From a plasmid, in assembly GCF_054482525.1 (NCBI RefSeq), contig NZ_JBTHVG010000007.1: a DNA stretch of 64,000 bases. One strand, written 5' to 3'. Below, piece by piece: positions 3,121 to 15,251 of the stretch. Under the pieces are notes generated by a model. The model was not told where the DNA came from and did no database searches. It worked only from the letters and a program-made list of their open reading frames with translations. The translations under genes were made by a program, and so were the position numbers. Within the stretch, counting starts at the first letter, position 1. Each line of letters starts with the position of its first letter.

Positions 3121-3594
3121 TTAGCCTTTTTTCCAAATCTGGTATGTATAATTTATATTAGACATAAAAAACTGTTCAAAAACCAAATTGAAATTCTCAG
3201 GCATTATAGGGAATTTGATATCACCTTCGACTTCAACGTGAACAGTAGACAAATGAATTATATCTGCTTTTTCAATAAGGCTATTATAGATTTGACCCCC
3301 GCCAGAGACATATACATGATCTGTAACTTTTGATAGCTCTTTCAAAGCATTTTCTATTGAAGGAAAAACTAGGACGTTTTCATTTGAGCTTGAAATTCCG
3401 TTCTTTGACACTACTGCATATTTGCGATTTGGAAGAACACCCATAGAGTCAAATGTTTTTCTTCCGACAAGGAGCCATTGATTATATGTGAGCGCTTTAA
3501 AGAGTAGTTGCTCACCTTTTACTGACCACGGGATATCAGGACCACTACCGATTACGCCATTTTCTGACACTGCAGAAATCAATGATATTTTCAA
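3121..3594 (-). CDS. dfrA: Trimethoprim-resistant dihydrofolate reductase DfrA (dfrA1-like family; allele not determined, possibly dfrA27-like)
   Basis: 157 codons from a TTG start preceded by AAGGGAG; product [48 protein letters not shown]... typical of dfrA1-family; first cassette next to attI1. Confidence 0.85.
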
Positions 3595-3751: not shown

Positions 3752-4765
3752 ATGAAAACCGCCACTGCGCCGTTACCACCGCTGCGTTCGGTCAAGGTTC
3801 TGGACCAGTTGCGTGAGCGCATACGCTACTTGCATTACAGTTTACGAACCGAACAGGCTTATGTCCACTGGGTTCGTGCCTTCATCCGTTTCCACGGTGT
3901 GCGTCACCCGGCAACCTTGGGCAGCAGCGAAGTCGAGGCATTTCTGTCCTGGCTGGCGAACGAGCGCAAGGTTTCGGTCTCCACGCATCGTCAGGCATTG
4001 GCGGCCTTGCTGTTCTTCTACGGCAAGGTGCTGTGCACGGATCTGCCCTGGCTTCAGGAGATCGGAAGACCTCGGCCGTCGCGGCGCTTGCCGGTGGTGC
4101 TGACCCCGGATGAAGTGGTTCGCATCCTCGGTTTTCTGGAAGGCGAGCATCGTTTGTTCGCCCAGCTTCTGTATGGAACGGGCATGCGGATCAGTGAGGG
4201 TTTGCAACTGCGGGTCAAGGATCTGGATTTCGATCACGGCACGATCATCGTGCGGGAGGGCAAGGGCTCCAAGGATCGGGCCTTGATGTTACCCGAGAGC
4301 TTGGCACCCAGCCTGCGCGAGCAGCTGTCGCGTGCACGGGCATGGTGGCTGAAGGACCAGGCCGAGGGCCGCAGCGGCGTTGCGCTTCCCGACGCCCTTG
4401 AGCGGAAGTATCCGCGCGCCGGGCATTCCTGGCCGTGGTTCTGGGTTTTTGCGCAGCACACGCATTCGACCGATCCACGGAGCGGTGTCGTGCGTCGCCA
4501 TCACATGTATGACCAGACCTTTCAGCGCGCCTTCAAACGTGCCGTAGAACAAGCAGGCATCACGAAGCCCGCCACACCGCACACCCTCCGCCACTCGTTC
4601 GCGACGGCCTTGCTCCGCAGCGGTTACGACATTCGAACTGTGCAGGATCTGCTCGGCCATTCCGACGTCTCTACGACGATGATTTACACGCATGTGCTGA
4701 AAGTTGGCGGTGCCGGAGTGCGCTCACCGCTTGATGCGCTGCCGCCCCTCACTAGTGAGAGGTAG
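3752..4765 (+). CDS. intI1: Class 1 integron integrase IntI1
   Basis: 337-aa [53 protein letters not shown]..., tyrosine recombinase motifs (HTLRHSFAT...[15 protein letters not shown]). Confidence 0.95.
3839..3867 (-). promoter_or_regulatory. Integron cassette promoter Pc (TGGACA - 17 bp - TAAACT, the hybrid PcH1 configuration) inside the 5' end of intI1
   Basis: Minus-strand -35 TGGACA (3862-3867) and -10 TAAACT (3839-3844) with 17-bp spacer, directed into the cassette array. Confidence 0.6.
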
Positions 4766-4942
4766 GGCAGCGCAAGTCAATCCTGGCGGATTCACTACCC
4801 CTGCGCGAAGGCCATCGGTGCCGCATCGAACGGCCGGTTGCGGAAAGTCCTCCCTGCGTCCGCTGATGGCCGGCAGCAGCCCGTCGTTGCCTGATGGATC
4901 CAACCCCTCCGCTGCTATAGTGCAGTCGGCTTCTGACGTTCA

Positions 4943-4967
4943 GTGCAGCCGTCTTCTGAAAACGACA
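4943..4967. repeat. IRi, 25-bp terminal inverted repeat at the intI1 end of the class 1 integron
   Basis: Sequence gtgcagccgtcttctgaaaacgaca is the complement of TGTCGTTTTCAGAAGACGGCTGCAC. Confidence 0.75.
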
Positions 4968-5318
4968 ATGGAGGTGGTAGCCGAGGGTGTGGAAACACCC
5001 GACTGCCTTGCGTGGTTGCGGCAGGCGGGTTGCGACACGGTGCAGGGTTTCCTGTTCGCCAGGCCGATGCCGGCGGCGGCCTTCGTCGGCTTCGTCAACC
5101 AATGGAGGAACACCACCATGAACGCCAATGAACCGAGCACCAGTTGCTGCGTGTGCTGCAAGGAAATCCCGCTCGATGCCGCCTTCACGCCGGAAGGGGC
5201 CGAGTACGTGGAGCATTTCTGCGGGCTGGAGTGCTATCAGCGCTTCCAGGCGCGGGCCAGCACTGCGACCGAAACCAGCGTCAAACCGGACGCTTGTGAT
5301 TCGCCGCCGTCAGGTTGA
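4968..5318 (+). CDS. tnpM: TnpM (C-terminal remnant of urf2, EAL-domain protein) of Tn21
   Basis: 116-aa ORF starting immediately after IRi: [42 protein letters not shown]...; Tn21 backbone context. Confidence 0.7.
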
Positions 5319-5443
5319 GGCATACCCTAACCTGATGTCAGATGCCATGTGTAAATTGCGTCAGGATAGGATTGAATTTTGAATTTATTGACATATCTCG
5401 TTGAAGGTCATAGAGTCTTCCCTGACATTTTGCAGGGAATTCC

Positions 5444-5601
5444 ATGACTGGACAGCGCATTGGGTATATCAGGGTCAGCACCTTCGACCAGAACCCGGAA
5501 CGGCAACTGGAAGGCGTCAAGGTTGATCGCGCTTTTAGCGACAAGGCATCCGGCAAGGATGTCAAGCGTCCGCAACTGGAAGCGCTGATAAGCTTCGCCC
5601 G
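5444..5601 (+). pseudogene. tnpR: Tn21 resolvase tnpR, 5' fragment truncated by IS26
   Basis: MTGQRIGYIRVSTFDQNPERQLEGVKVDRAFSDKASGKDVKRPQLEALISFAR then the IS26 inverted repeat; serine recombinase N-terminus. Confidence 0.8.
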
Positions 5602-6421
5602 GGCACTGTTGCAAAGTTAGCGATGAGGCAGCCTTTTGTCTTATTCAAAGGCCTTACATTTCAAAAACTCTGCTTACCAGGCGCATTTCGCCCAGGGGAT
5701 CACCATAATAAAATGCTGAGGTCTGGCCTTTGCGTAGTGCACGCATCACCTCAATACCTTTGATGGTGGCGTAAGCCGTCTTCATGGATTTAAATCCCAG
5801 CGTGGCGTTGATTATCCGTTTCAGTTTGCCATGATCGCATTCAATCACGTTGTTCCGGTACTTAATCTGTCGGTGTTCAACGTCAGACGGGCACCGGCCT
5901 TCGCGTTTGAGCAGAGCAAGCGCGCGACCATAGGCGGGCGCTTTATCCGTGTTGATGAATCGTGGGATCTGCCACTTCTTCACGTTGTTGAGGATTTTAC
6001 CCAGAAACCGGTATGCAGCTTTGCTGTTACGACGGGAGGAGAGATAAAAATCGACAGTGCGGCCCCGGCTGTCGACGGCCCGGTACAGATACGCCCAGCG
6101 GCCATTGACCTTCACGTAGGTTTCATCCATGTGCCACGGGCAAAGATCGGAAGGGTTACGCCAGTACCAGCGCAGCCGTTTTTCCATTTCAGGCGCATAA
6201 CGCTGAACCCAGCGGTAAATCGTGGAGTGATCGACATTCACTCCGCGTTCAGCCAGCATCTCCTGCAGCTCACGGTAACTGATGCCGTATTTGCAGTACC
6301 AGCGTACGGCCCACAGAATGATGTCACGCTGAAAATGCCGGCCTTTGAATGGGTTCATGTGCAGCTCCATCAGCAAAAGGGGATGATAAGTTTATCACCA
6401 CCGACTATTTGCAACAGTGCC
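5602..6421 (-). mobile_element. IS26 copy 1 (820 bp, IS6 family)
   Basis: Bounded by GGCACTGTTGCAAA terminal inverted repeats; encodes Tnp26. Confidence 0.95.
5654..6358 (-). CDS. tnpA: IS26 transposase Tnp26 (copy 1; carries a Thr where copies 2 and 3 have Ala in ...RKGQ[T/A]SAFYY...)
   Basis: MNPFKGRHFQRDIILWAVRWYCKYGISYRELQEMLAERGVNVDHSTIYRWVQRYAPEMEK... Confidence 0.95.
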   Translation of the reverse strand: MNPFKGRHFQRDIILWAVRWYCKYGISYRELQEMLAERGVNVDHSTIYRWVQRYAPEMEKRLRWYWRNPSDLCPWHMDETYVKVNGRWAYLYRAVDSRGRTVDFYLSSRRNSKAAYRFLGKILNNVKKWQIPRFINTDKAPAYGRALALLKREGRCPSDVEHRQIKYRNNVIECDHGKLKRIINATLGFKSMKTAYATIKGIEVMRALRKGQTSAFYYGDPLGEMRLVSRVFEM

Positions 6422-7713
6422 GTCGTAAACGGTCGAGTTTCATGATCCGTTTGAGGTGGGCGAAAAGCATCTCCACCTTCTTTCGTTCGCAGCGAGAGAC
6501 GAGGTACTCCGGTGTCTTGGCGATGCGTCGAGCCACGTCGCGGGCAGCCTCATGGATGCTGCGGACGATCTTCCGATTCGGCGTGTTGGGGCAGCATTTC
6601 GCTTTCAACGGGCAGGTGGCGCAGTCGGTTTGGCTGGAGCGGTAAATGACGGTTTTGGCCTTAGTTACCCGCGACCTTTGCTGGGTGAAGGCGCGCCATT
6701 CACTGCGTAGCGGTTTGCCGGCTGGGCAGCGATATTCATTGGCGTCCTGACTCCAGTGAAAGTCGTTACTGGAGAGGCTGTCGTCCTTGCGCTCGGTCTT
6801 GTCCCACACCGGCACATGCGGTTCGATGTCCTTTTCTTCGACCATCCAGGCCAGCATCGGGGCGGTGCCATAAGCGGTATCGCCGATAAGGCGTTCCGGT
6901 GTGAGATCGAACTGCGCCTCGACACGCTCGACCATCGTCCTAGTCGAATCGACTTCGGCGGTACGGTGCGCCGGGGTAGCTTCCACGTCCATGATCACAC
7001 CGTGCTCAGTGTCGATCAGGTAATTCGTGGAGTAGGCAAAAAAGGCCGGGCCACCTGGCGCTGCTGTCCAACGGGACTGAGGATCAGTGAGCGAAATTTT
7101 CTTGGGAAGAGCCTCAGCCAGCGCCTCTTCATCAAGGGCTTCGAGGTACTCGCGCACTGCGCGGCTGCTGAGCTTTGGATCGTTCCAATCGACCTCATCT
7201 CCCGCCACCCCACGTTGCCGGCTGGCATCCGCCTTAATGATGCTGGCGTCGACGGCGAAACCTTCACCCTTGACTAGGCCGGCTGCCATGCAGCGCCGCA
7301 GCACCTCATTGAATAACCAGCGGAATAGATCGCTGTCACGAAAACGCCCATGGCGATTCTTCGAGAAGGTCGAGTGATTGGGGACTTCGTCTTCCAGACC
7401 CAACCGGCAGAACCAGCGATAGGCCAGGTTCAGGTGCACCTCTTCGCACAATCGCCGCTCGGAACGAATGCCATAGCAAGTAGCCGACGACCAGCATGCG
7501 CACCATCAACTCCGGGTCAATCGAGGGACGCCCGATGGGGCTATAGAAATCTGCCAGGTAGGCACGTAGATCACTGAGATCCAAGCACTGGTCGATGCTG
7601 CGCAGGAGATGTTGGGCCGGGACGTGATCTTCCAGATTGAACGAGTAGAACAGGCGCTGCTGTCCTCCCGGTAACTGTCCCATCATGCTGTTCGCCCCCA
7701 CGCTCGCTGACAA
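6422..7713 (-). pseudogene. IS5/IS1182-family transposase, frameshifted and 3'-truncated by IS26
   Basis: Two overlapping minus-strand frames (N-part MSASVGANSMMGQLPGGQQRLFYSFNLEDHVPAQHLLRSIDQ...; C-part with DDE-like region) that together resemble one transposase; reading frame runs into the IS26 end. Confidence 0.55.
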
Positions 7714-7800
7714 AGCAATTTTGCCAACGGCATGGGGAGGCCGCTACTTTTTCAACAGAATCGGCCGCACACAGCCATTCGGCTCAACAGAACCCTGCCT

Positions 7801-8958
7801 TTACCCCACCAAACTCCGGAAACTCGCCCGGTAGTCCGTCGGCTTGAGATGCACATGTTGGCTGAGGTCGCCGGGTAGCGTGAACAGGCGCGGACCGTCC
7901 CGAAACTGGAACACGCGATACAGATGGAATTGATCGCCCGCCTCCTTGGAGAATTCGAGTTCGTTGTGGCTGACCAAGAAAGACGAGCCTACCCCGCCAT
8001 TGGTGGTTTTCACCTCGATGAAGCGCTCATGGGCGTCCTCTTCGAACGACAGGATGTCGAACCCCGCACCGTCTCCCTGGGTGTCGGACACCCAATCCAG
8101 CCGCTGAAAAAGCTCTGGGTGGCCGAGCTCGGTCAGGCGTTGCTGTTCGTAGCCAATCACCCACTGCTCCCCTGCCCGGCCCAGCTTGCGGTTGGCTTCA
8201 TCGCGAGCGGCATAATCGAACTTTCGCGGTAGGCGTTGCCGTAGAGATGCCGGGGTACGCACAAGCACTTCACGGGCGGGTGGTTCTACCAAAGCCGCTC
8301 GGTAGGTTTTGTCACCCGGAAGTTTTACCTCCTCCAGGGCATCGACAAGAGCGCCGACCGTCTGCTGATGTTCCAGAACGTAGGCGTGTACGGATTTACG
8401 CAGCAGCAGTTGGCTGTTGCCGCGTGGCTTGTAGCCGTTGATATAGGGCAGGCCCAGGGCATCGAGTACGGCGCTAATGTTCTGGTGCTTGAGCTCGACT
8501 GAAGACTTGCTGCGACCGTTCAGCAGTTGGCGCAGTGCCTGGTTGTGCTCGGACTTGTTGTACGGCTCCCCAGCCGCCTCGGCACGCAGCATGTCGAAAT
8601 AGTCTTCGACCGTGGCCAGGACCTCTTCTTCGGACCAGTCTTCGCCGATGCGAATGATGCGAAACCCGAGCCGCGTCAGCGCCGGAACGACGGTCGCCTC
8701 GCCACCGGAGAAGCTGTCAGCAGTGAGCGGGCCCTGCTCGGGAAATTGCTTGCCGAAGGCCACACCGGCGATGGCCTTGGAATCGCAATCGGTGCCGGTC
8801 TTCGGATCACGTACCAGGAAGTCGCGGGACTTGCCGTAGCCGTGGCGCGCCAGGAATTTCGTGCGGCCCAGTTGCACGAACTCATCGATGGCAGCCTGCA
8901 CGGCGGCGGGGCTTCGAAGCTGGGAGAGTTGAGACACAGGGTCCTTCCTTACTGTCAT
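7801..8958 (-). CDS. Putative restriction-endonuclease-like protein: N-terminal DNA-binding-like domain plus C-terminal DUF3883/NOV-C-like PD-(D/E)xK nuclease domain (function inferred)
   Basis: 385 aa from ATG at 8958 (MTVRKDPVSQ...); C-terminal region ...GAGFDILSFEEDAHERFIEVKTTNGG...HLYRVFQF resembles a D...E.K nuclease core. The ORF track extends to 9114 but the upstream part overlaps a separate small ORF. Confidence 0.45.
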   Translation of the reverse strand: MTVRKDPVSQLSQLRSPAAVQAAIDEFVQLGRTKFLARHGYGKSRDFLVRDPKTGTDCDSKAIAGVAFGKQFPEQGPLTADSFSGGEATVVPALTRLGFRIIRIGEDWSEEEVLATVEDYFDMLRAEAAGEPYNKSEHNQALRQLLNGRSKSSVELKHQNISAVLDALGLPYINGYKPRGNSQLLLRKSVHAYVLEHQQTVGALVDALEEVKLPGDKTYRAALVEPPAREVLVRTPASLRQRLPRKFDYAARDEANRKLGRAGEQWVIGYEQQRLTELGHPELFQRLDWVSDTQGDGAGFDILSFEEDAHERFIEVKTTNGGVGSSFLVSHNELEFSKEAGDQFHLYRVFQFRDGPRLFTLPGDLSQHVHLKPTDYRASFRSLVG

Positions 8959-8987
8959 GGTGTGCCGGGAACCGCCGAGCCACGAGA

Positions 8988-9233
8988 TTATGAGTAGCCC
9001 CTGAACAGAAACGTCACGATAAAAGCCGTGAACGCCACCAGGCCCATTAAATCCCTTGCGTATTTGCAGCCCGTGCTGTCCAAACCTGTACCAGGTCCGA
9101 TCAACACGCTCCAACCATTGAGGTACGAAAACACCGCCTGACCGAACAAAAAATGCGTGATAGCCGCCGCAGCCATGACGCCGGAATCGTCAGACAGGCT
9201 GTAGCTGTTGACCATTGCCCTGTACGCCTGCAT
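8988..9233 (-). CDS. Small hydrophobic protein (81 aa), possibly co-transcribed with the downstream nuclease-like gene
   Basis: ORF MQAYRAMVNSY...GLVAFTAFIVTFLFRGYS with hydrophobic stretches; ends about 30 bp before the ATG of the next gene on the same strand. Confidence 0.25.
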   Translation of the reverse strand: MQAYRAMVNSYSLSDDSGVMAAAAITHFLFGQAVFSYLNGWSVLIGPGTGLDSTGCKYARDLMGLVAFTAFIVTFLFRGYS

Positions 9234-9519
9234 CTGAAATGGCTATTGCCCTGATGGGAGCCGGCTTTTCAGCCACCGACACCAGCGATGCCGTCAATAT
9301 TCTTTACCCGATAACCATGACCGTACAAGCTAACAAGGCCTGGCAAGCCAGCGGACTTAAAAAGTCTTTTTTTCTACCATCCCACAAAAAAGTTCGTGGT
9401 GGAGAAAAGATAAGCTATGCAAGGCTTTAGGAGACGTGGTTTTTCAGGATGACGAAGAACGATTCGGCGCTAGGTGCAACATAGGTGCATCGCACGAGCG
9501 CTAGGAACGGCGAAAAAAG

Positions 9520-9552
9520 GCGGACGTGGCGAAATCGGTAGACGCAGCAGAC
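9520..9552 (+). tRNA. tRNA-Leu(UAA) exon 1 fragment (positions 1-32: acceptor 5' strand, D-arm, anticodon-stem 5' strand), cut by IS26
   Basis: GCGGACG-UG-GCGAAAUCGGUAGACGC-A-GCAGA-C has a tRNA-Leu-like D-arm; acceptor strand is exactly complementary to CGUCCGC at 12929-12935 on the minus strand. Confidence 0.6.
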
Positions 9553-10372
9553 GGCACTGTTGCAAATAGTCGGTGGTGATAAACTTATCATCCCCTTTTG
9601 CTGATGGAGCTGCACATGAACCCATTCAAAGGCCGGCATTTTCAGCGTGACATCATTCTGTGGGCCGTACGCTGGTACTGCAAATACGGCATCAGTTACC
9701 GTGAGCTGCAGGAGATGCTGGCTGAACGCGGAGTGAATGTCGATCACTCCACGATTTACCGCTGGGTTCAGCGTTATGCGCCTGAAATGGAAAAACGGCT
9801 GCGCTGGTACTGGCGTAACCCTTCCGATCTTTGCCCGTGGCACATGGATGAAACCTACGTGAAGGTCAATGGCCGCTGGGCGTATCTGTACCGGGCCGTC
9901 GACAGCCGGGGCCGCACTGTCGATTTTTATCTCTCCTCCCGTCGTAACAGCAAAGCTGCATACCGGTTTCTGGGTAAAATCCTCAACAACGTGAAGAAGT
10001 GGCAGATCCCACGATTCATCAACACGGATAAAGCGCCCGCCTATGGTCGCGCGCTTGCTCTGCTCAAACGCGAAGGCCGGTGCCCGTCTGACGTTGAACA
10101 CCGACAGATTAAGTACCGGAACAACGTGATTGAATGCGATCATGGCAAACTGAAACGGATAATCAACGCCACGCTGGGATTTAAATCCATGAAGACGGCT
10201 TACGCCACCATCAAAGGTATTGAGGTGATGCGTGCACTACGCAAAGGCCAGGCCTCAGCATTTTATTATGGTGATCCCCTGGGCGAAATGCGCCTGGTAA
10301 GCAGAGTTTTTGAAATGTAAGGCCTTTGAATAAGACAAAAGGCTGCCTCATCGCTAACTTTGCAACAGTGCC
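9553..10372 (+). mobile_element. IS26 copy 2 (820 bp)
   Basis: GGCACTGTTGCAAA inverted repeats; Tnp26 ORF on plus strand; 8 bp to its left (9545-9552) are CAGCAGAC. Confidence 0.95.
9616..10320 (+). CDS. tnpA: IS26 transposase Tnp26 (copy 2)
   Basis: Translation identical to copy 3. Confidence 0.95.
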   Translation: MNPFKGRHFQRDIILWAVRWYCKYGISYRELQEMLAERGVNVDHSTIYRWVQRYAPEMEKRLRWYWRNPSDLCPWHMDETYVKVNGRWAYLYRAVDSRGRTVDFYLSSRRNSKAAYRFLGKILNNVKKWQIPRFINTDKAPAYGRALALLKREGRCPSDVEHRQIKYRNNVIECDHGKLKRIINATLGFKSMKTAYATIKGIEVMRALRKGQASAFYYGDPLGEMRLVSRVFEM

Positions 10373-11381
10373 GGACTTTTCAAGTCTCGGAAGGTTTCTT
10401 CAATCTGCATTCGCTTCGAATAGATATTAACAAGTTGTTTGGGTGTTCGAATTTCAACAGGTAAGTTAGTTGCTAGAACCCATGGCTCCTTTGCCGACGC
10501 TGAGTAGATTTTAGGTGACGGGTGGTGACAATGAGTCCGTGTCGAGCGCTGATTTTTTCGGCCTTTAGAGCGAGATTTATACAATAGAATTTGGCATGAG
10601 ATTGGATTGCTTTTAGTCAGCCTCTTATAGCCTAAAGTCTTTGAGTGACTAGATGACATATCATGTAAGTTGCTGATAGGTTTCCAGTTTTCCGCTCCTA
10701 GGTCTGCATATTGTACTTTTCCTCTTACTCGACTTAACCAGTACCAACCCAGCTTCTCAACGGATTTATACCATGGCACTTTAAAGCCAGCATCACTGAC
10801 AATGAGCGGTGTGGTGTTACTCGGTAGAATGCTCGCAAGGTCGGCTAGAAATTGGTCATGAGCTTTCTTTGAACATTGCTCTGAAAGCGGGAACGCTTTC
10901 TCATAAAGAGTAACAGAACGACCGTGTAGTGCGACTGAAGCTCGCAATACCATAAGTCGTTTTTGCTCACGAATATCAGACCAGTCAACAAGTACAATGG
11001 GCATCGTATTGCCCGAACAGATAAAGCTAGCATGCCAACGGTATACAGCGAGTCGCTCTTTGTGGAGGTGACGATTACCTAACAATCGGTCGATTCGTTT
11101 GATGTTATGTTTTGTTCTCGCTTTGGTTGGCAGGTTACGGCCAAGTTCGGTAAGAGTGAGAGTTTTACAGTCAAGTAATGCGTGGCAAGCCAACGTTAAG
11201 CTGTTGAGTCGTTTTAAGTGTAATTCGGGGCAGAATTGGTAAAGAGAGTCGTGTAAAATATCGAGTTCGCACATCTTGTTGTCTGATTATTGATTTTTCG
11301 CGAAACCATTTGATCATATGACAAGATGTGTATCCACCTTAACTTAATGATTTTTACCAAAATCATTAGGGGATTCATCAG
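10373..11381 (-). mobile_element. Truncated IS10 (outer end plus 5' two-thirds of the transposase gene), cut by IS26
   Basis: Outer end ...CTGATGAATCCCCTAATGATTTTGGTAAAAATCATTAAG (complement at 11343-11381); partial transposase MCELDILHDSLYQFCPELHLKRLNSLTLACHALLDCKTLTLTELGRNLPTKARTKHNIKRIDRLLGNRHLHKERLAVYRWH... (IS4 family, IS10-like) whose frame runs into IS26. Confidence 0.85.
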
Positions 11382-11416
11382 CGTATAGTGTTTTGCAGTT
11401 TAGAGGAGATATCGCG

Positions 11417-12277
11417 ATGCATACGCGGAAGGCAATAACGGAGGCGCTTCAAAAACTCGGAGTCCAAACCGGTGACCTCTTGATGGTGCATGCCTCACTT
11501 AAAGCGATTGGTCCGGTCGAAGGAGGAGCGGAGACGGTCGTTGCCGCGTTACGCTCCGCGGTTGGGCCGACTGGCACTGTGATGGGATACGCGTCGTGGG
11601 ACCGATCACCCTACGAGGAGACTCTGAATGGCGCTCGGCTGGATGACGAAGCCCGCCGTACCTGGCTGCCGTTCGATCCCGCAACAGCCGGGACTTACCG
11701 TGGGTTCGGCCTGCTGAATCAATTTCTGGTTCAAGCCCCCGGCGCGCGGCGCAGCGCGCACCCCGATGCATCGATGGTCGCGGTTGGTCCGCTGGCTGAA
11801 ACGCTGACGGAGCCTCACGAACTCGGTCACGCCTTGGGGGAAGGATCGCCCGTCGAGCGGTTCGTTCGCCTTGGCGGGAAGGCCCTGCTGTTGGGTGCGC
11901 CGCTAAACTCCGTTACCGCATTGCACTACGCCGAGGCGGTTGCCGATATCCCCAACAAACGGTGGGTGACGTATGAGATGCCGATGCTTGGAAGAGACGG
12001 TGAAGTCGCCTGGAAAACGGCATCGGATTACGATTCAAACGGCATTCTCGATTGCTTTGCTATCGAAGGAAAGCCGGATGCGGTTGAAACTATAGCAAAT
12101 GCTTACGTGAAGCTCGGTCGCCATCGAGAAGGTGTCGTGGGCTTTGCTCAGTGCTACCTGTTCGACGCGCAGGACATCGTGACGTTCGGCGTCACCTATC
12201 TTGAGAAGCATTTCGGAACCACTCCGATCGTGCCTCCGCACGAGGCCGTCGAGCGCTCTTGCGAGCCTTCAGGTTAG
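11417..12277 (+). CDS. aac(3)-II: Aminoglycoside N(3)-acetyltransferase AAC(3)-II (gentamicin/tobramycin resistance)
   Basis: 286-aa product MHTRKAITEALQKLGVQTGDLLMVHASLKAIGPVEGGAETVVAALRSAVGPTGTVMGYASWDRSPYEETLNGARLDDEARRTW... Confidence 0.95.
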   Translation: MHTRKAITEALQKLGVQTGDLLMVHASLKAIGPVEGGAETVVAALRSAVGPTGTVMGYASWDRSPYEETLNGARLDDEARRTWLPFDPATAGTYRGFGLLNQFLVQAPGARRSAHPDASMVAVGPLAETLTEPHELGHALGEGSPVERFVRLGGKALLLGAPLNSVTALHYAEAVADIPNKRWVTYEMPMLGRDGEVAWKTASDYDSNGILDCFAIEGKPDAVETIANAYVKLGRHREGVVGFAQCYLFDAQDIVTFGVTYLEKHFGTTPIVPPHEAVERSCEPSG

Positions 12278-12289
12278 AGGCCGTCGACA

Positions 12290-12832
12290 ATGATAATCTG
12301 GATCAACGGACCTTTCGGCGCCGGAAAGACGACGCTCGCTAAGCGGCTGCGCGATCGGCGTTCCAAATCGCTGATCTTTGACCCCGAGGAAATCGGGTTC
12401 GTGGTGAAAGAAACGGTCCCCATGCCAGCGAGCGGAGACTATCAGGATCTCCCCTTGTGGAGGGGACTTACGATCGCGGCGGTCAGGGAGATTCGAAGGA
12501 ATTACTCGCAGGACATCATCATCCCAATGACGCTCGTGCACCCGGACTATCTGACTGAGATACTCGACGGGGTAAGGCGGATCGACGATCAGCTGCTGCA
12601 CATCTTTCTGACGCTCAACGAGGACCTATTGCGTCACCGGATCGCGAACCAGACCATGCATCCTGACCCGAATCGAAATGCGGAGATTCGAGAGTGGCGA
12701 TTAGCGAATGTCGCCCGATGCTTGGCCGCAAGGGAACGGCTTCCATGCACAACCCGTGTTCTCGATAGTGGTGCACACACCAGCGATGAACTCGCAGCGA
12801 TGGTGCTCGACGGAATCGATGGGCGCACCTGA
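12290..12832 (+). CDS. tmrB: TmrB-like ATP-binding protein (tunicamycin resistance family)
   Basis: 180-aa ORF with P-loop MIIWINGPFGAGKTTLAKRL; known aac(3)-II/tmrB pairing. Confidence 0.85.
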   Translation: MIIWINGPFGAGKTTLAKRLRDRRSKSLIFDPEEIGFVVKETVPMPASGDYQDLPLWRGLTIAAVREIRRNYSQDIIIPMTLVHPDYLTEILDGVRRIDDQLLHIFLTLNEDLLRHRIANQTMHPDPNRNAEIREWRLANVARCLAARERLPCTTRVLDSGAHTSDELAAMVLDGIDGRT

Positions 12833-12924
12833 TCGCCTTCGACGCCTGCGCAAAGCGTAGCGCGAGGGTGGCGGGCTCACGACCAAACGCCCAGAGGTCG
12901 ATCATCGCAGGGATGTTTGGCTTT

Positions 12925-12975
12925 GTGGTGCGGACGACGGGACTCGAACCCGTACTCTCACAGAGAAGCAGATTT
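12925..12975 (-). tRNA. tRNA-Leu(UAA) exon 2 (A35 to CCA: anticodon AA, anticodon-stem 3' strand, long variable arm, T-arm, acceptor 3' strand)
   Basis: Minus-strand RNA AAAA-UCUGC-UUCUCUGUGAGAGU-ACGGGUUCGAGUCCCGU-CGUCCGC-A-CCA; stems pair with the exon 1 fragment at 9520-9552. Confidence 0.6.
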
Positions 12976-13189
12976 TCGTACCACCTCGACTTTCGCCGCC
13001 GTCTGATGACGTTCGTGGTCTGGACTGTCCCTTCGCCATTGCCCGAAGGCTTTAGGCGCCGCCCGTCCAGTCTCTACACCTTCCCCCGAAGGGGCTTGGC
13101 TCGGGATTGGCTTAGGGTATTGCCCGTTAGCGTTCCCCGACTTTGAGCGGTTCTACTCCGCGGATTTCCCCGCGGGCACTCCAATTTTA
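12976..13189 (-). ncRNA. Group I (tRNA-Leu-type) intron, about 214 nt, inserted between U34 and A35 of tRNA-Leu(UAA)
   Basis: Follows exon ...CUU; ends with G before exon 2; contains elements recalled from cyanobacterial tRNA-Leu and Azoarcus tRNA-Ile introns (CCCGAGCCAAGCC; GAAGGUGUAGAGACUGGACGGG...CCUAA). Confidence 0.6.
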
Positions 13190-13199
13190 AAGTCTGCTG

Positions 13200-14019
13200 G
13201 GCACTGTTGCAAAGTTAGCGATGAGGCAGCCTTTTGTCTTATTCAAAGGCCTTACATTTCAAAAACTCTGCTTACCAGGCGCATTTCGCCCAGGGGATCA
13301 CCATAATAAAATGCTGAGGCCTGGCCTTTGCGTAGTGCACGCATCACCTCAATACCTTTGATGGTGGCGTAAGCCGTCTTCATGGATTTAAATCCCAGCG
13401 TGGCGTTGATTATCCGTTTCAGTTTGCCATGATCGCATTCAATCACGTTGTTCCGGTACTTAATCTGTCGGTGTTCAACGTCAGACGGGCACCGGCCTTC
13501 GCGTTTGAGCAGAGCAAGCGCGCGACCATAGGCGGGCGCTTTATCCGTGTTGATGAATCGTGGGATCTGCCACTTCTTCACGTTGTTGAGGATTTTACCC
13601 AGAAACCGGTATGCAGCTTTGCTGTTACGACGGGAGGAGAGATAAAAATCGACAGTGCGGCCCCGGCTGTCGACGGCCCGGTACAGATACGCCCAGCGGC
13701 CATTGACCTTCACGTAGGTTTCATCCATGTGCCACGGGCAAAGATCGGAAGGGTTACGCCAGTACCAGCGCAGCCGTTTTTCCATTTCAGGCGCATAACG
13801 CTGAACCCAGCGGTAAATCGTGGAGTGATCGACATTCACTCCGCGTTCAGCCAGCATCTCCTGCAGCTCACGGTAACTGATGCCGTATTTGCAGTACCAG
13901 CGTACGGCCCACAGAATGATGTCACGCTGAAAATGCCGGCCTTTGAATGGGTTCATGTGCAGCTCCATCAGCAAAAGGGGATGATAAGTTTATCACCACC
14001 GACTATTTGCAACAGTGCC
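13200..14019 (-). mobile_element. IS26 copy 3 (820 bp)
   Basis: GGCACTGTTGCAAA inverted repeats; 8 bp to its left (13192-13199) are GTCTGCTG, the reverse complement of CAGCAGAC. Confidence 0.95.
13252..13956 (-). CDS. tnpA: IS26 transposase Tnp26 (copy 3)
   Basis: Translation identical to copy 2. Confidence 0.95.
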   Translation of the reverse strand: MNPFKGRHFQRDIILWAVRWYCKYGISYRELQEMLAERGVNVDHSTIYRWVQRYAPEMEKRLRWYWRNPSDLCPWHMDETYVKVNGRWAYLYRAVDSRGRTVDFYLSSRRNSKAAYRFLGKILNNVKKWQIPRFINTDKAPAYGRALALLKREGRCPSDVEHRQIKYRNNVIECDHGKLKRIINATLGFKSMKTAYATIKGIEVMRALRKGQASAFYYGDPLGEMRLVSRVFEM

Positions 14020-15095
<1,076 letters not shown>

Positions 15096-15251
15096 TGAGA
15101 GCAGAGATAGCGCTGATGTCCGGCGGTGCTTTTGCCGTTACGCACCACCCCGTCAGTAGCTGAACAGGAGGGACAGCTGATAGAAACAGAAGCCACTGGA
15201 GCACCTCAAAAACACCATCATACACTAAATCAGTAAGTTGGCAGCATCACC
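15096..15251 (-). mobile_element. IS1 fragment (left inverted repeat plus first ~33 codons of insA), interrupted by the Tn2/Tn3 IRR
   Basis: Complement of GGTGATGCTGCCAACTTACTGATTTAGTGTATGATGGTGTTTTTGAGGTGCTCCAGTGGCTTCTGTTTCTATCAGCTGTCCCTCC...; ends where the Tn3-family IR begins. Confidence 0.85.

Follow-up and report, generated by a model that had tools for sequence, protein, structure and literature searches.

An IS26-truncated, frameshifted ISCfr1 remnant in a rearranged aac(3)-IId-tmrB module carrying an unannotated, intron-bearing tRNA-Leu(UAA) gene

Features of the locus

The window, a 64,000-nucleotide stretch of plasmid DNA (RefSeq assembly GCF_054482525.1, contig NZ_JBTHVG010000007.1), carries a truncated insertion sequence beside a nuclease-like gene, part of a tRNA gene, a gentamicin-resistance region and three copies of IS26, arranged as follows.

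5602..6421, minus strand: IS26 copy a, 820 bp, which truncates ISCfr1; terminal repeats GGCACTGTTGCAAA / TTTGCAACAGTGCC
6422..7766, minus strand: truncated, frameshifted ISCfr1 (IS1182 family), recognised by profile NF033551, by identity to annotated ISCfr1 and by its differences from plasmid pEl1573 (L002)
7767..7800, minus strand: 34-bp spacer that separates the stop codon of the DUF3883 gene from the point where ISCfr1 inserted (target GGCC); in metagenome contig L140 the homologous spacer is uninterrupted
7801..8937, minus strand: DUF3883 / NOV_C "nuclease-like" gene, orf1182, 378 aa (Pfam NOV_C, PADLOC PDC-S36)
8988..9215, minus strand: orf228, the 3' three-quarters of a 100-aa gene (P0244, 100 aa, 96% identity, in contigs L139-L142)
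9215..9519, plus strand: 305 bp upstream of the tRNA, with a G+C content of 49.5%, holding "orf192"; no Pfam match
9520..9552, plus strand: first 33 nt of the 5' exon of tRNA-Leu(UAA), cut by IS26; identical to positions 7098-7130 of plasmid pEGY3 (L001)
9553..10372, plus strand: IS26 copy b, in the opposite orientation to copies a and c; the original IS26 beside the IS10 fragment
10373..12925, plus strand: inverted remainder of the module, matching pEGY3 reversed: IS10 fragment (10373-11381), aac(3)-IId (11417-12277), tmrB (12290-12832) and spacer
12926..13199, minus strand: remaining tRNA-Leu(UAA) gene, an exact match to pEGY3 7123-7396, with the last 10 nt of the 5' exon (13199-13190), the group I intron (13189-12977) and the 3' exon plus CCA (12976-12926)
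13200..14019, minus strand: IS26 copy c, the new copy from the intramolecular transposition that inverted 10373-13199

Most of these features belong to a known structure. The "aacC2-tmrB region" has been described as a Tn2 derivative with the order aacC2-tmrB-orf192-orf228-orf1182-ISCfr1, complete in the prototype pEl1573, where it took the place of tnpR-res-tnpA of Tn2 (PMC7096625). All of its components are present in the window at 99.9-100% identity; unlike the published module, however, the window version is truncated by IS26 at the ISCfr1 end and halved by an IS26 inversion. The ancestral order is ISCfr1, DUF3883 (orf1182), orf228, orf192, the tRNA gene, tmrB and aac(3)-IId, and the published description mentions neither a tRNA nor an intron in the orf192-tmrB interval. 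The non-IS part of the module was found at ≥99% identity in 1,352 plasmid records, and in more than 1,200 plasmids the module continues unbroken past the position of the breakpoint that forms the right edge of 6422-9552. Most module blocks are alike in G+C content (58-60%), and no homologues or domains were found for orf192.

The transposase is encoded on the minus strand by two overlapping ORFs in different frames (7713..7336 and 7451..6405). NF033551, the NCBIfam profile for IS1182-family transposases, matches the 348-aa frame with 305.5 bits (cutoff 270) and the 125-aa N-terminal frame with 59.9 bits (profile positions 6-68). The Pfam matches are DUF772, DDE_Tnp_1 and DDE_Tnp_1_6, with DUF772 divided between the two frames at profile position 28 (1-28 and 28-74). 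The remnant DNA is 99.9% identical to plasmid records annotated as "IS1182-like element ISCfr1 family transposase", and it shares its left repeat and its place beside orf1182/DUF3883 with the ISCfr1 of pEl1573 and hundreds of other plasmids. By these matches window 6422-7766 (minus strand) is identified as ISCfr1, an IS1182-family element; the extent of 6422-7713 given by an earlier, sequence-only reading of the region is exact for the ORFs, and the element itself continues to 7766.

The tRNA-Leu(UAA) gene and its group I intron

In the window a tRNA-Leu gene lies in two pieces, 9520-9552 (plus strand) and 13199-12926 (minus strand). ARAGORN called no tRNA at the 9520-9552 site, either in the window or in uninterrupted copies, because the gene is interrupted by a group I intron. 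Directly after the 5' part of the tRNA, Rfam model RF00028 (group I intron) matches with 36.8 bits (E = 6e-7), under its gathering score of 50. According to a bacteria-wide survey of such introns, the RF00028 seed holds no bacterial sequences and the model under-scores bacterial tRNA introns; the same survey designates the classical tRNA-Leu(UAA) intron "Leu.3Ug", of subgroup IC3 (bioRxiv 10.1101/2020.01.27.920355). When 213 nt are removed between CUU and AAAA, ARAGORN recognises in the spliced sequence an 86-nt tRNA-Leu(taa) with an encoded CCA. A "tRNA-Stop" was discarded as mis-splicing of this gene by the intron mode of ARAGORN, and manual splicing was used instead.

Like the classical Leu.3Ug IC3 introns of cyanobacteria and plastids, the module intron lies between U34 and A35 (CUU/...g/AAAA), with a U-1:G wobble in P1 and a terminal G, and its conserved core is shared with the Azoarcus-type sequence GAAGGTGTAGAGACTRGACGG. 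Unlike them, it is G+C-rich, of alphaproteobacterial type, carried unannotated on enterobacterial resistance plasmids, and disrupted in the window. A scan of species-representative genomes for the intron core motif returned at least 120 loci. Among these matches listed, exons and intron align to the module copy in 30 loci, 28 of which splice in silico to tRNA-Leu(UAA) (one at low confidence), and 27 chromosomal copies share 71-83% identity with the tRNA and intron of the module. The aligned loci among the matches listed are mostly from Alphaproteobacteria, with others in Acidovorax and Bryobacteraceae (Acidobacteria), and the closest are from Phenylobacterium (83%), Acetobacteraceae (81%) and Sphingomonas (79%). 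No donor of the tRNA gene appears among the matches listed, in which identity does not exceed 83% and synteny with DUF3883, tmrB or aac(3) is absent. A match on a Bradyrhizobium plasmid was set aside as a degenerate tRNA-Leu/intron-like copy that Rfam does not recognise.

The predicted fold is consistent across the relatives. In a 29-sequence alignment, 40 of the 86 base pairs tested show compensatory changes, and paired cells reach 97.7%, versus 85.4% in shuffled alignments and 35-45% when partners are slid; the U-1:G wobble occurs in 29/29 sequences, and the plasmid copy retains 85/86 pairs. Neither a sigma-70 consensus promoter nor an intrinsic terminator was found around the tRNA. The tRNA-Leu(UAA) gene of the ancestral module is thus, from its sequence and predicted structure, of alphaproteobacterial type and structurally intact, intron included. 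The intact intron-containing gene, with no feature annotated under it, is present in 645 of 5,426 complete E. coli genomes; it lacks RefSeq annotation and is missing from published module maps, and a literature search returned nothing relevant linking group I introns to tmrB or IS26, or ISCfr1 to tRNA.

Sources of the module

The DUF3883 protein matches Pfam NOV_C (77 bits) and the PADLOC candidate defence family PDC-S36 (355 bits). Its nearest named relatives, which share 84-88% of residues, are from Stutzerimonas and Pseudomonas, where the DUF3883 gene, including that of relatives with 88-90% shared residues, comes after a fused DEAD+UvrD helicase of ~1,700 aa. The same arrangement is seen in four metagenome contigs (L139-L142) with the gene order helicase, 100-aa ORF, DUF3883, and the plasmid gene is a candidate anti-phage defence gene parted from its helicase partner. 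The contigs share 94% nucleotide identity with the module over DUF3883 and the spacer and 97% over orf228 (from L002 7791 downwards). In three of them (L140-L142) the ISCfr1 target site is still empty, reading ...CATTC GGCC AAAAGCGG in L140, and the neighbouring proteins of the metagenome loci fall into 90%-identity clusters with proteins of Pseudomonas aeruginosa and Stutzerimonas. Between the ISCfr1 insertion point and window 9214|9215 the module is homologous to this donor-type locus, and at the latter position a sharp junction cuts the 100-aa gene; apart from that gene in L139-L142, no homologue of orf228 was found outside the module. ISCfr1, the DUF3883 gene and the truncated small ORF therefore derive from a helicase/nuclease defence-type locus of Pseudomonadaceae, an assignment at family or genus level only. 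The sequence-only reading had proposed that the whole segment of about 3 kb, tRNA included, originated in a chromosomal island; this agrees with the L140-L142 loci and their empty site as far as ISCfr1 and the nuclease-like gene are concerned, and fails for the tRNA.

The other half of the module points elsewhere. The nearest non-plasmid relatives of TmrB are alphaproteobacterial, and in seven long metagenome contigs (L133-135, L144-147) there is an aac(3)-tmrB pair with 86-87% DNA identity to the module, the identity beginning 35 bp ahead of aac(3) and ending with the stop codon of tmrB. The context of the pair in these contigs is conserved, chromosomal and 86-88% identical to Sinorhizobium meliloti, at whose locus tmrB is present and aac(3) is absent. 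The aac(3)-II-tmrB pair thus has an apparent origin in a Sinorhizobium-like chromosomal locus. The tRNA gene does not adjoin aac(3)-tmrB in those contigs; the module is therefore a mosaic of two sources at least, and possibly three, with parts from at least two bacterial classes. A metagenome scan with a 20-mer spanning 9214|9215, designed so as not to match the module, found no donor of the tRNA block, and for no block was a donor with ~100% identity found (best 94-97% for DUF3883 and 86-87% for aac(3)-IId-tmrB). Donor assignments accordingly stay at family or genus level, the best match for the tRNA being 83% among the matches listed.

In an alternative scenario, the aac(3)-IId-tmrB-tRNA-DUF3883 block came in its entirety from one donor chromosome and was mobilised by ISCfr1 through one-ended or composite transposition. 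The presence of ISCfr1 at one module end in all complete copies and the shared G+C content of most blocks agree with this, but the nearest relatives of the blocks are spread over different classes: those of DUF3883 and orf228 are in Pseudomonadaceae, those of aac(3)-tmrB in Sinorhizobium-like bacteria and those of the tRNA, among the matches listed, in Caulobacterales, Sphingomonadales and Acetobacteraceae. Furthermore, orf228 is cut at a sharp junction, and there is a single copy of ISCfr1, with the other module end adjoining the Tn2 inverted repeat and holding no second ISCfr1 repeat. Mobilisation by ISCfr1 is therefore improbable, and assembly of the module from separate sources is preferred. 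Within that mosaic, the module may have brought an intact intron of the self-splicing type, in tRNA-Leu(UAA), to Enterobacterales and Acinetobacter (>1,200 plasmids, ~12% of E. coli genomes) unannotated, together with a Sinorhizobium/Ensifer-like aac(3)-II-tmrB; this combined proposal is put forward tentatively, with doubt slightly outweighing confidence.

The IS26 copies and the inversion

Window 6419-9552 corresponds to pEGY3 3997-7130, and window 9551-13199 to pEGY3 10771-7123 reversed (99.9% identity), so that segment 10373-13199 is inverted relative to both pEGY3 and pEl1573. The order in pEGY3 is aac(3)-IId, IS10 fragment, IS26. The 8-bp target (pEGY3 7123-7130) is found in the window as CAGCAGAC at 9545-9552 and as GTCTGCTG at 13192-13199; these two copies adjoin IS26 b and c and are mutually inverted. 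An inverted IS26 pair with a reverse-complement 8-bp duplication is the sequence signature of IS26 intramolecular replicative transposition in inverse orientation. This form of transposition is the inversion pathway described for IS26, and the window agrees with it in the inverted IS26 pair round an inverted segment, the duplicated 8-bp target and the uninterrupted ancestor, with no mechanistic difference. What is particular to the window is the target, the anticodon stem of a tRNA-Leu gene, an insertion absent from both reference collections: the exact tRNA::IS26 junction occurs in 0 of 72,556 plasmids and 0 of 5,426 complete E. coli genomes.

Copy a contains a 240-aa Tnp26 ORF (5654-6376), and its 8-bp flanks differ from each other, which means that there is no target duplication around it. 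Copies a and b are in opposite orientation and have unrelated flanking 8-mers. An IS26 pseudo-compound transposon or translocatable unit was rejected, given that a and b are not directly oriented and share no target duplication. By sequence comparison, truncation and cutting of the module are the work of two different IS26 copies.

These observations bear on the proposal that IS26 took up 6422-9552 as a unit (an island fragment from a chromosome, or else a translocatable unit) whose tRNA fragment marks an integration site. Such a unit would be bounded as the segment is, with IS26 at both edges and a tRNA fragment on one side facing an IS and a defence-like gene on the other, and its ISCfr1-DUF3883 part is truly chromosomal or island-derived. 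Against this, the two IS26 copies are mutually inverted, and the right edge is a breakpoint, with no match in either collection, in a module that is otherwise contiguous. The tRNA piece is the 5' end of a gene that is full-length in uninterrupted copies, whereas islands normally duplicate the 3' end; the island-type homology stops at 9214|9215, 305 bp short of the tRNA, and no integrase ORF is present in 6422-9552. On the same grounds, the reading of the tRNA fragment as an island attachment remnant was rejected. Capture of a unit is thus very unlikely, and inversion within a contiguous module is the preferred explanation. The sequence-only reading does not hold where it made the tRNA part of the nuclease island, treated the ~3 kb segment as one piece (its right edge is the inversion breakpoint, and the other half lies inverted at 10373-13199), or spoke of capture by IS26, whose flanking copies are inverted and lack a common target duplication.

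Lesions of the ISCfr1 remnant

The intact element was defined from four full-length copies (pEl1573, L003, L004 and L126) and from empty sites. Relative to the ISCfr1 of the module, the copy on an Aeromonas plasmid (L003) is 95% identical, that of Azotobacter (L004), which sits inside an EamA gene, 92%, and the chromosomal copy of Stutzerimonas kunmingensis (L126) about 95% (94.9%). Intact ISCfr1 is 1,615 bp long, with perfect terminal inverted repeats GGCCGATTCTGTTGAAAAAGTAG and a single 456-aa ORF. In S. kunmingensis the IS has GGCC on either side and the matching empty sites (L127, L128) contain a single GGCC, in keeping with a target duplication of these 4 bp. This insertion occupies the homologous site downstream of a DUF3883 gene. 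The DUF3883 genes are just 83.5% identical and the IS copies 94.9%, a difference that speaks more for independent insertions and a site preference than for shared ancestry.

Across the IS part, the window copy differs from that of pEl1573 by a single indel. Base-by-base comparison places an extra base at window 7477/7478 (GCAAGT versus GCAGT in the intact pEl1573 copy), which on the coding strand turns GGC TAC TGC into GGC TAC TTG C at codon 70 and shifts the frame. This accounts for the split of the transposase over two frames noted in the sequence-only reading, both of which match NF033551. The loss of the 3' end to IS26, described in the same reading, is also borne out: the remnant stops at 6422, abutting the IS26 terminal repeat ...TTTGCAACAGTGCC that ends at 6421, and 271 bp of the 1,615-bp element are absent, which takes away the final 35 codons with their stop codon and also the right inverted repeat. 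The window copy keeps 1,345 bp, with the start codon at 7686 and the left inverted repeat at 7744-7766, and no second ISCfr1 inverted repeat was found anywhere within the window. Unlike annotated ISCfr1, the window copy is thus a pseudogene or remnant, with one base added at codon 70 and the last 271 bp replaced by IS26.

Although two overlapping frames exist and programmed -1 frameshifting is used by some IS families (IS1, IS3), the idea that ribosomal frameshifting joins them into a functional transposase gene is refuted by the 536 plasmid records with an uninterrupted 456-aa ORF lacking the extra base, the more so as GGCTAC(T)TGC within the frame-junction sequence GGCTACTTGC is not a slippery heptamer and the transposase 3' end and right inverted repeat are missing, and its probability is negligible.

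The frameshift is a real allele and not a sequencing error, since in PLSDB an 81-nt probe found the frameshifted allele in 245 records (beside the 536 with the intact frame), and direct comparison found it in the full-length ISCfr1 of pEGY3. Its presence in a full-length element indicates that the frameshift predates the IS26 cut, an order inferred from allele distribution and not from phylogeny. The exact IS26/ISCfr1 junction, probed with 22 nt of IS26 plus 100 nt of ISCfr1, was present in 6 of the 60 rows sampled at even spacing from 758 records (~10%), and 6/6 were from E. coli. Junction probes were kept to ~20 nt of IS26; 100-nt queries centred on the junction returned IS26 copies and artefactual two-piece joins.

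With an insertion in the frame, 35 codons lost and the right inverted repeat lost, this copy of ISCfr1 is, from its sequence, irreversibly dead; it is unable to make a transposase or to be mobilised by one. Onward movement of its DNA would occur only through IS26 activity or homologous recombination. Region 6422-7766 is very probably a non-functional remnant of ISCfr1, passenger debris in the widespread aac(3)-IId (aacC2)-tmrB module.

A proposed history

A stepwise history is shown by sequence comparison, except where a point has been described above as inferred. ISCfr1 first inserted at GGCC, 34 bp downstream of a DUF3883 gene that came last in a helicase / small ORF / DUF3883 defence-type locus of a Pseudomonadaceae genome. 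ISCfr1 and 1.45 kb of this locus were then joined to an alphaproteobacterial-type block consisting of the tRNA-Leu(UAA) gene with its group I intron, followed by tmrB and aac(3)-IId, and the resulting module took the place of tnpR-res-tnpA in Tn2, an exchange already published for pEl1573. In one sublineage, a 1-nt insertion at codon 70 broke the transposase frame, leaving full-length elements such as that of pEGY3. In the lineage of the window, IS26 deleted the last 271 bp of ISCfr1, including the right inverted repeat. Finally, the IS26 beside aac(3)-IId transposed intramolecularly into the anticodon stem of the tRNA-Leu gene, inverting the aac(3)-IId-tmrB half, duplicating CAGCAGAC in inverted form and creating the apparent 3.1-kb segment bounded by IS26.

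Significance

The finding of a dead ISCfr1 is ordinary, concerning a known IS in a known module, and the remnant is useful only as a lineage marker. Together with its surroundings it provides a nested set of markers by which this resistance region can be followed across IncF-type plasmids: the frameshift allele (in about a third of the copies on plasmids), the IS26/ISCfr1 junction (about 10%, with the sampled ones all in E. coli) and the tRNA::IS26 inversion (apparently unique). Recognition of the 3-kb segment as an artefact of IS26 rearrangement inside a mosaic module also corrects the reading of its neighbourhood.

Two side observations are modestly interesting: the tRNA-Leu gene, and the origin of aac(3)-II-tmrB, which appears to be Sinorhizobium-like. 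An unannotated, intron-containing tRNA-Leu on one of the commonest gentamicin-resistance modules may interest specialists in RNA and annotation, and it offers a new handle on where the module was assembled. If the gene is transcribed, natural E. coli isolates would commonly possess an extra tRNA-Leu(UAA) along with a group I ribozyme that is active and not of phage origin.

The intron-bearing tRNA-Leu(UAA) gene

Between orf192 and tmrB, the aac(3)-IId module contains a complete tRNA-Leu(UAA) gene holding a 213-nt group I intron of the IC3 type, situated at the classical U34|A35 position. The gene is uninterrupted in two other plasmids and parted by IS26 in the window:

Window 9520-9552 (+) and 13199-12926 (-), the two pieces of the gene
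pEGY3 7098-7396, intact copy
pEl1573 8097-8395, intact copy

The intron-bearing gene does not appear on published maps of the module, and it is present, unannotated, in 645 of 5,426 complete E. coli genomes from RefSeq. A degenerate tRNA-Leu/group I intron-like sequence was also observed in the Bradyrhizobium ottawaense plasmid pBoOO100 (L005 2960-3255), just upstream of a TrlF-family ATPase gene; it has 73% identity to the module intron and an aberrant 5' exon, and is not recognized by Rfam.

Mobile element surroundings

Three segments next to IS26 copies in the window carry parts of other mobile elements:

3752-5601, intI1 (class 1 integron integrase), then Tn21-type sequence, then the start of a resolvase gene
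10373-11381, IS10 fragment with IS26 copy b on one side and aac(3)-IId on the other
14020-15096, Tn2 fragment with blaTEM-1, directly after IS26 copy c

The first is typical multiresistance-region scaffolding, in which the resolvase gene retains its first 53 codons before being cut by IS26 copy a. The IS10 fragment carries most of the transposase ORF (10354-11274), and its outer end is the exact point of the Tn2 inverted repeat/module junction in pEl1573. In pEl1573 a 135-bp stretch that contains the Tn2 inverted repeat adjoins the module; in the window it lies at 14961-15095, which indicates that IS26 reshuffled the same Tn2-derived region further.

The DUF3883 gene and the ISCfr1 target

The DUF3883 gene orf1182 (in window 7801-9215, a stretch that also holds orf228) has a match to PDC-S36, a candidate defence family in PADLOC. 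Within Pseudomonadaceae (L126-L129 and metagenome contigs L139-L142), it closes a locus of three genes, after those for a fused DEAD+UvrD helicase of ~1,700 aa and for a small protein of 100 aa. The plasmid-borne gene is an orphan, and what is left of the small-protein gene there, truncated at its 5' end, is "orf228".

Downstream of DUF3883, a homologous site was struck by ISCfr1-type elements in two diverged lineages:

L126 (Stutzerimonas kunmingensis) 9154-10768, occupied
L127/L128 around 9137-9160 and L140 around 3230-3245, empty

Because this site was used twice and GGCC always flanks the elements, ISCfr1-type elements may generate a 4-bp GGCC target duplication and prefer a repeated motif containing GGCC (…GGCCAAAAGCGGCC…).

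Origin of the aac(3)-IId-tmrB pair

No paper proposing a Rhizobiaceae-type origin for aac(3)-II/tmrB was found in the literature. Window 11382-12832 (aac(3)-IId-tmrB) shares 86-87% DNA identity with an aac(3)-tmrB pair on long metagenome contigs (L133-L135, L144-L147), where the surrounding chromosomal DNA is conserved and of Sinorhizobium/Ensifer-like bacteria; at the corresponding chromosomal place, S. meliloti has tmrB only. This match in such a context suggests that the aac(3)-II/tmrB pair is of Rhizobiaceae-type origin.
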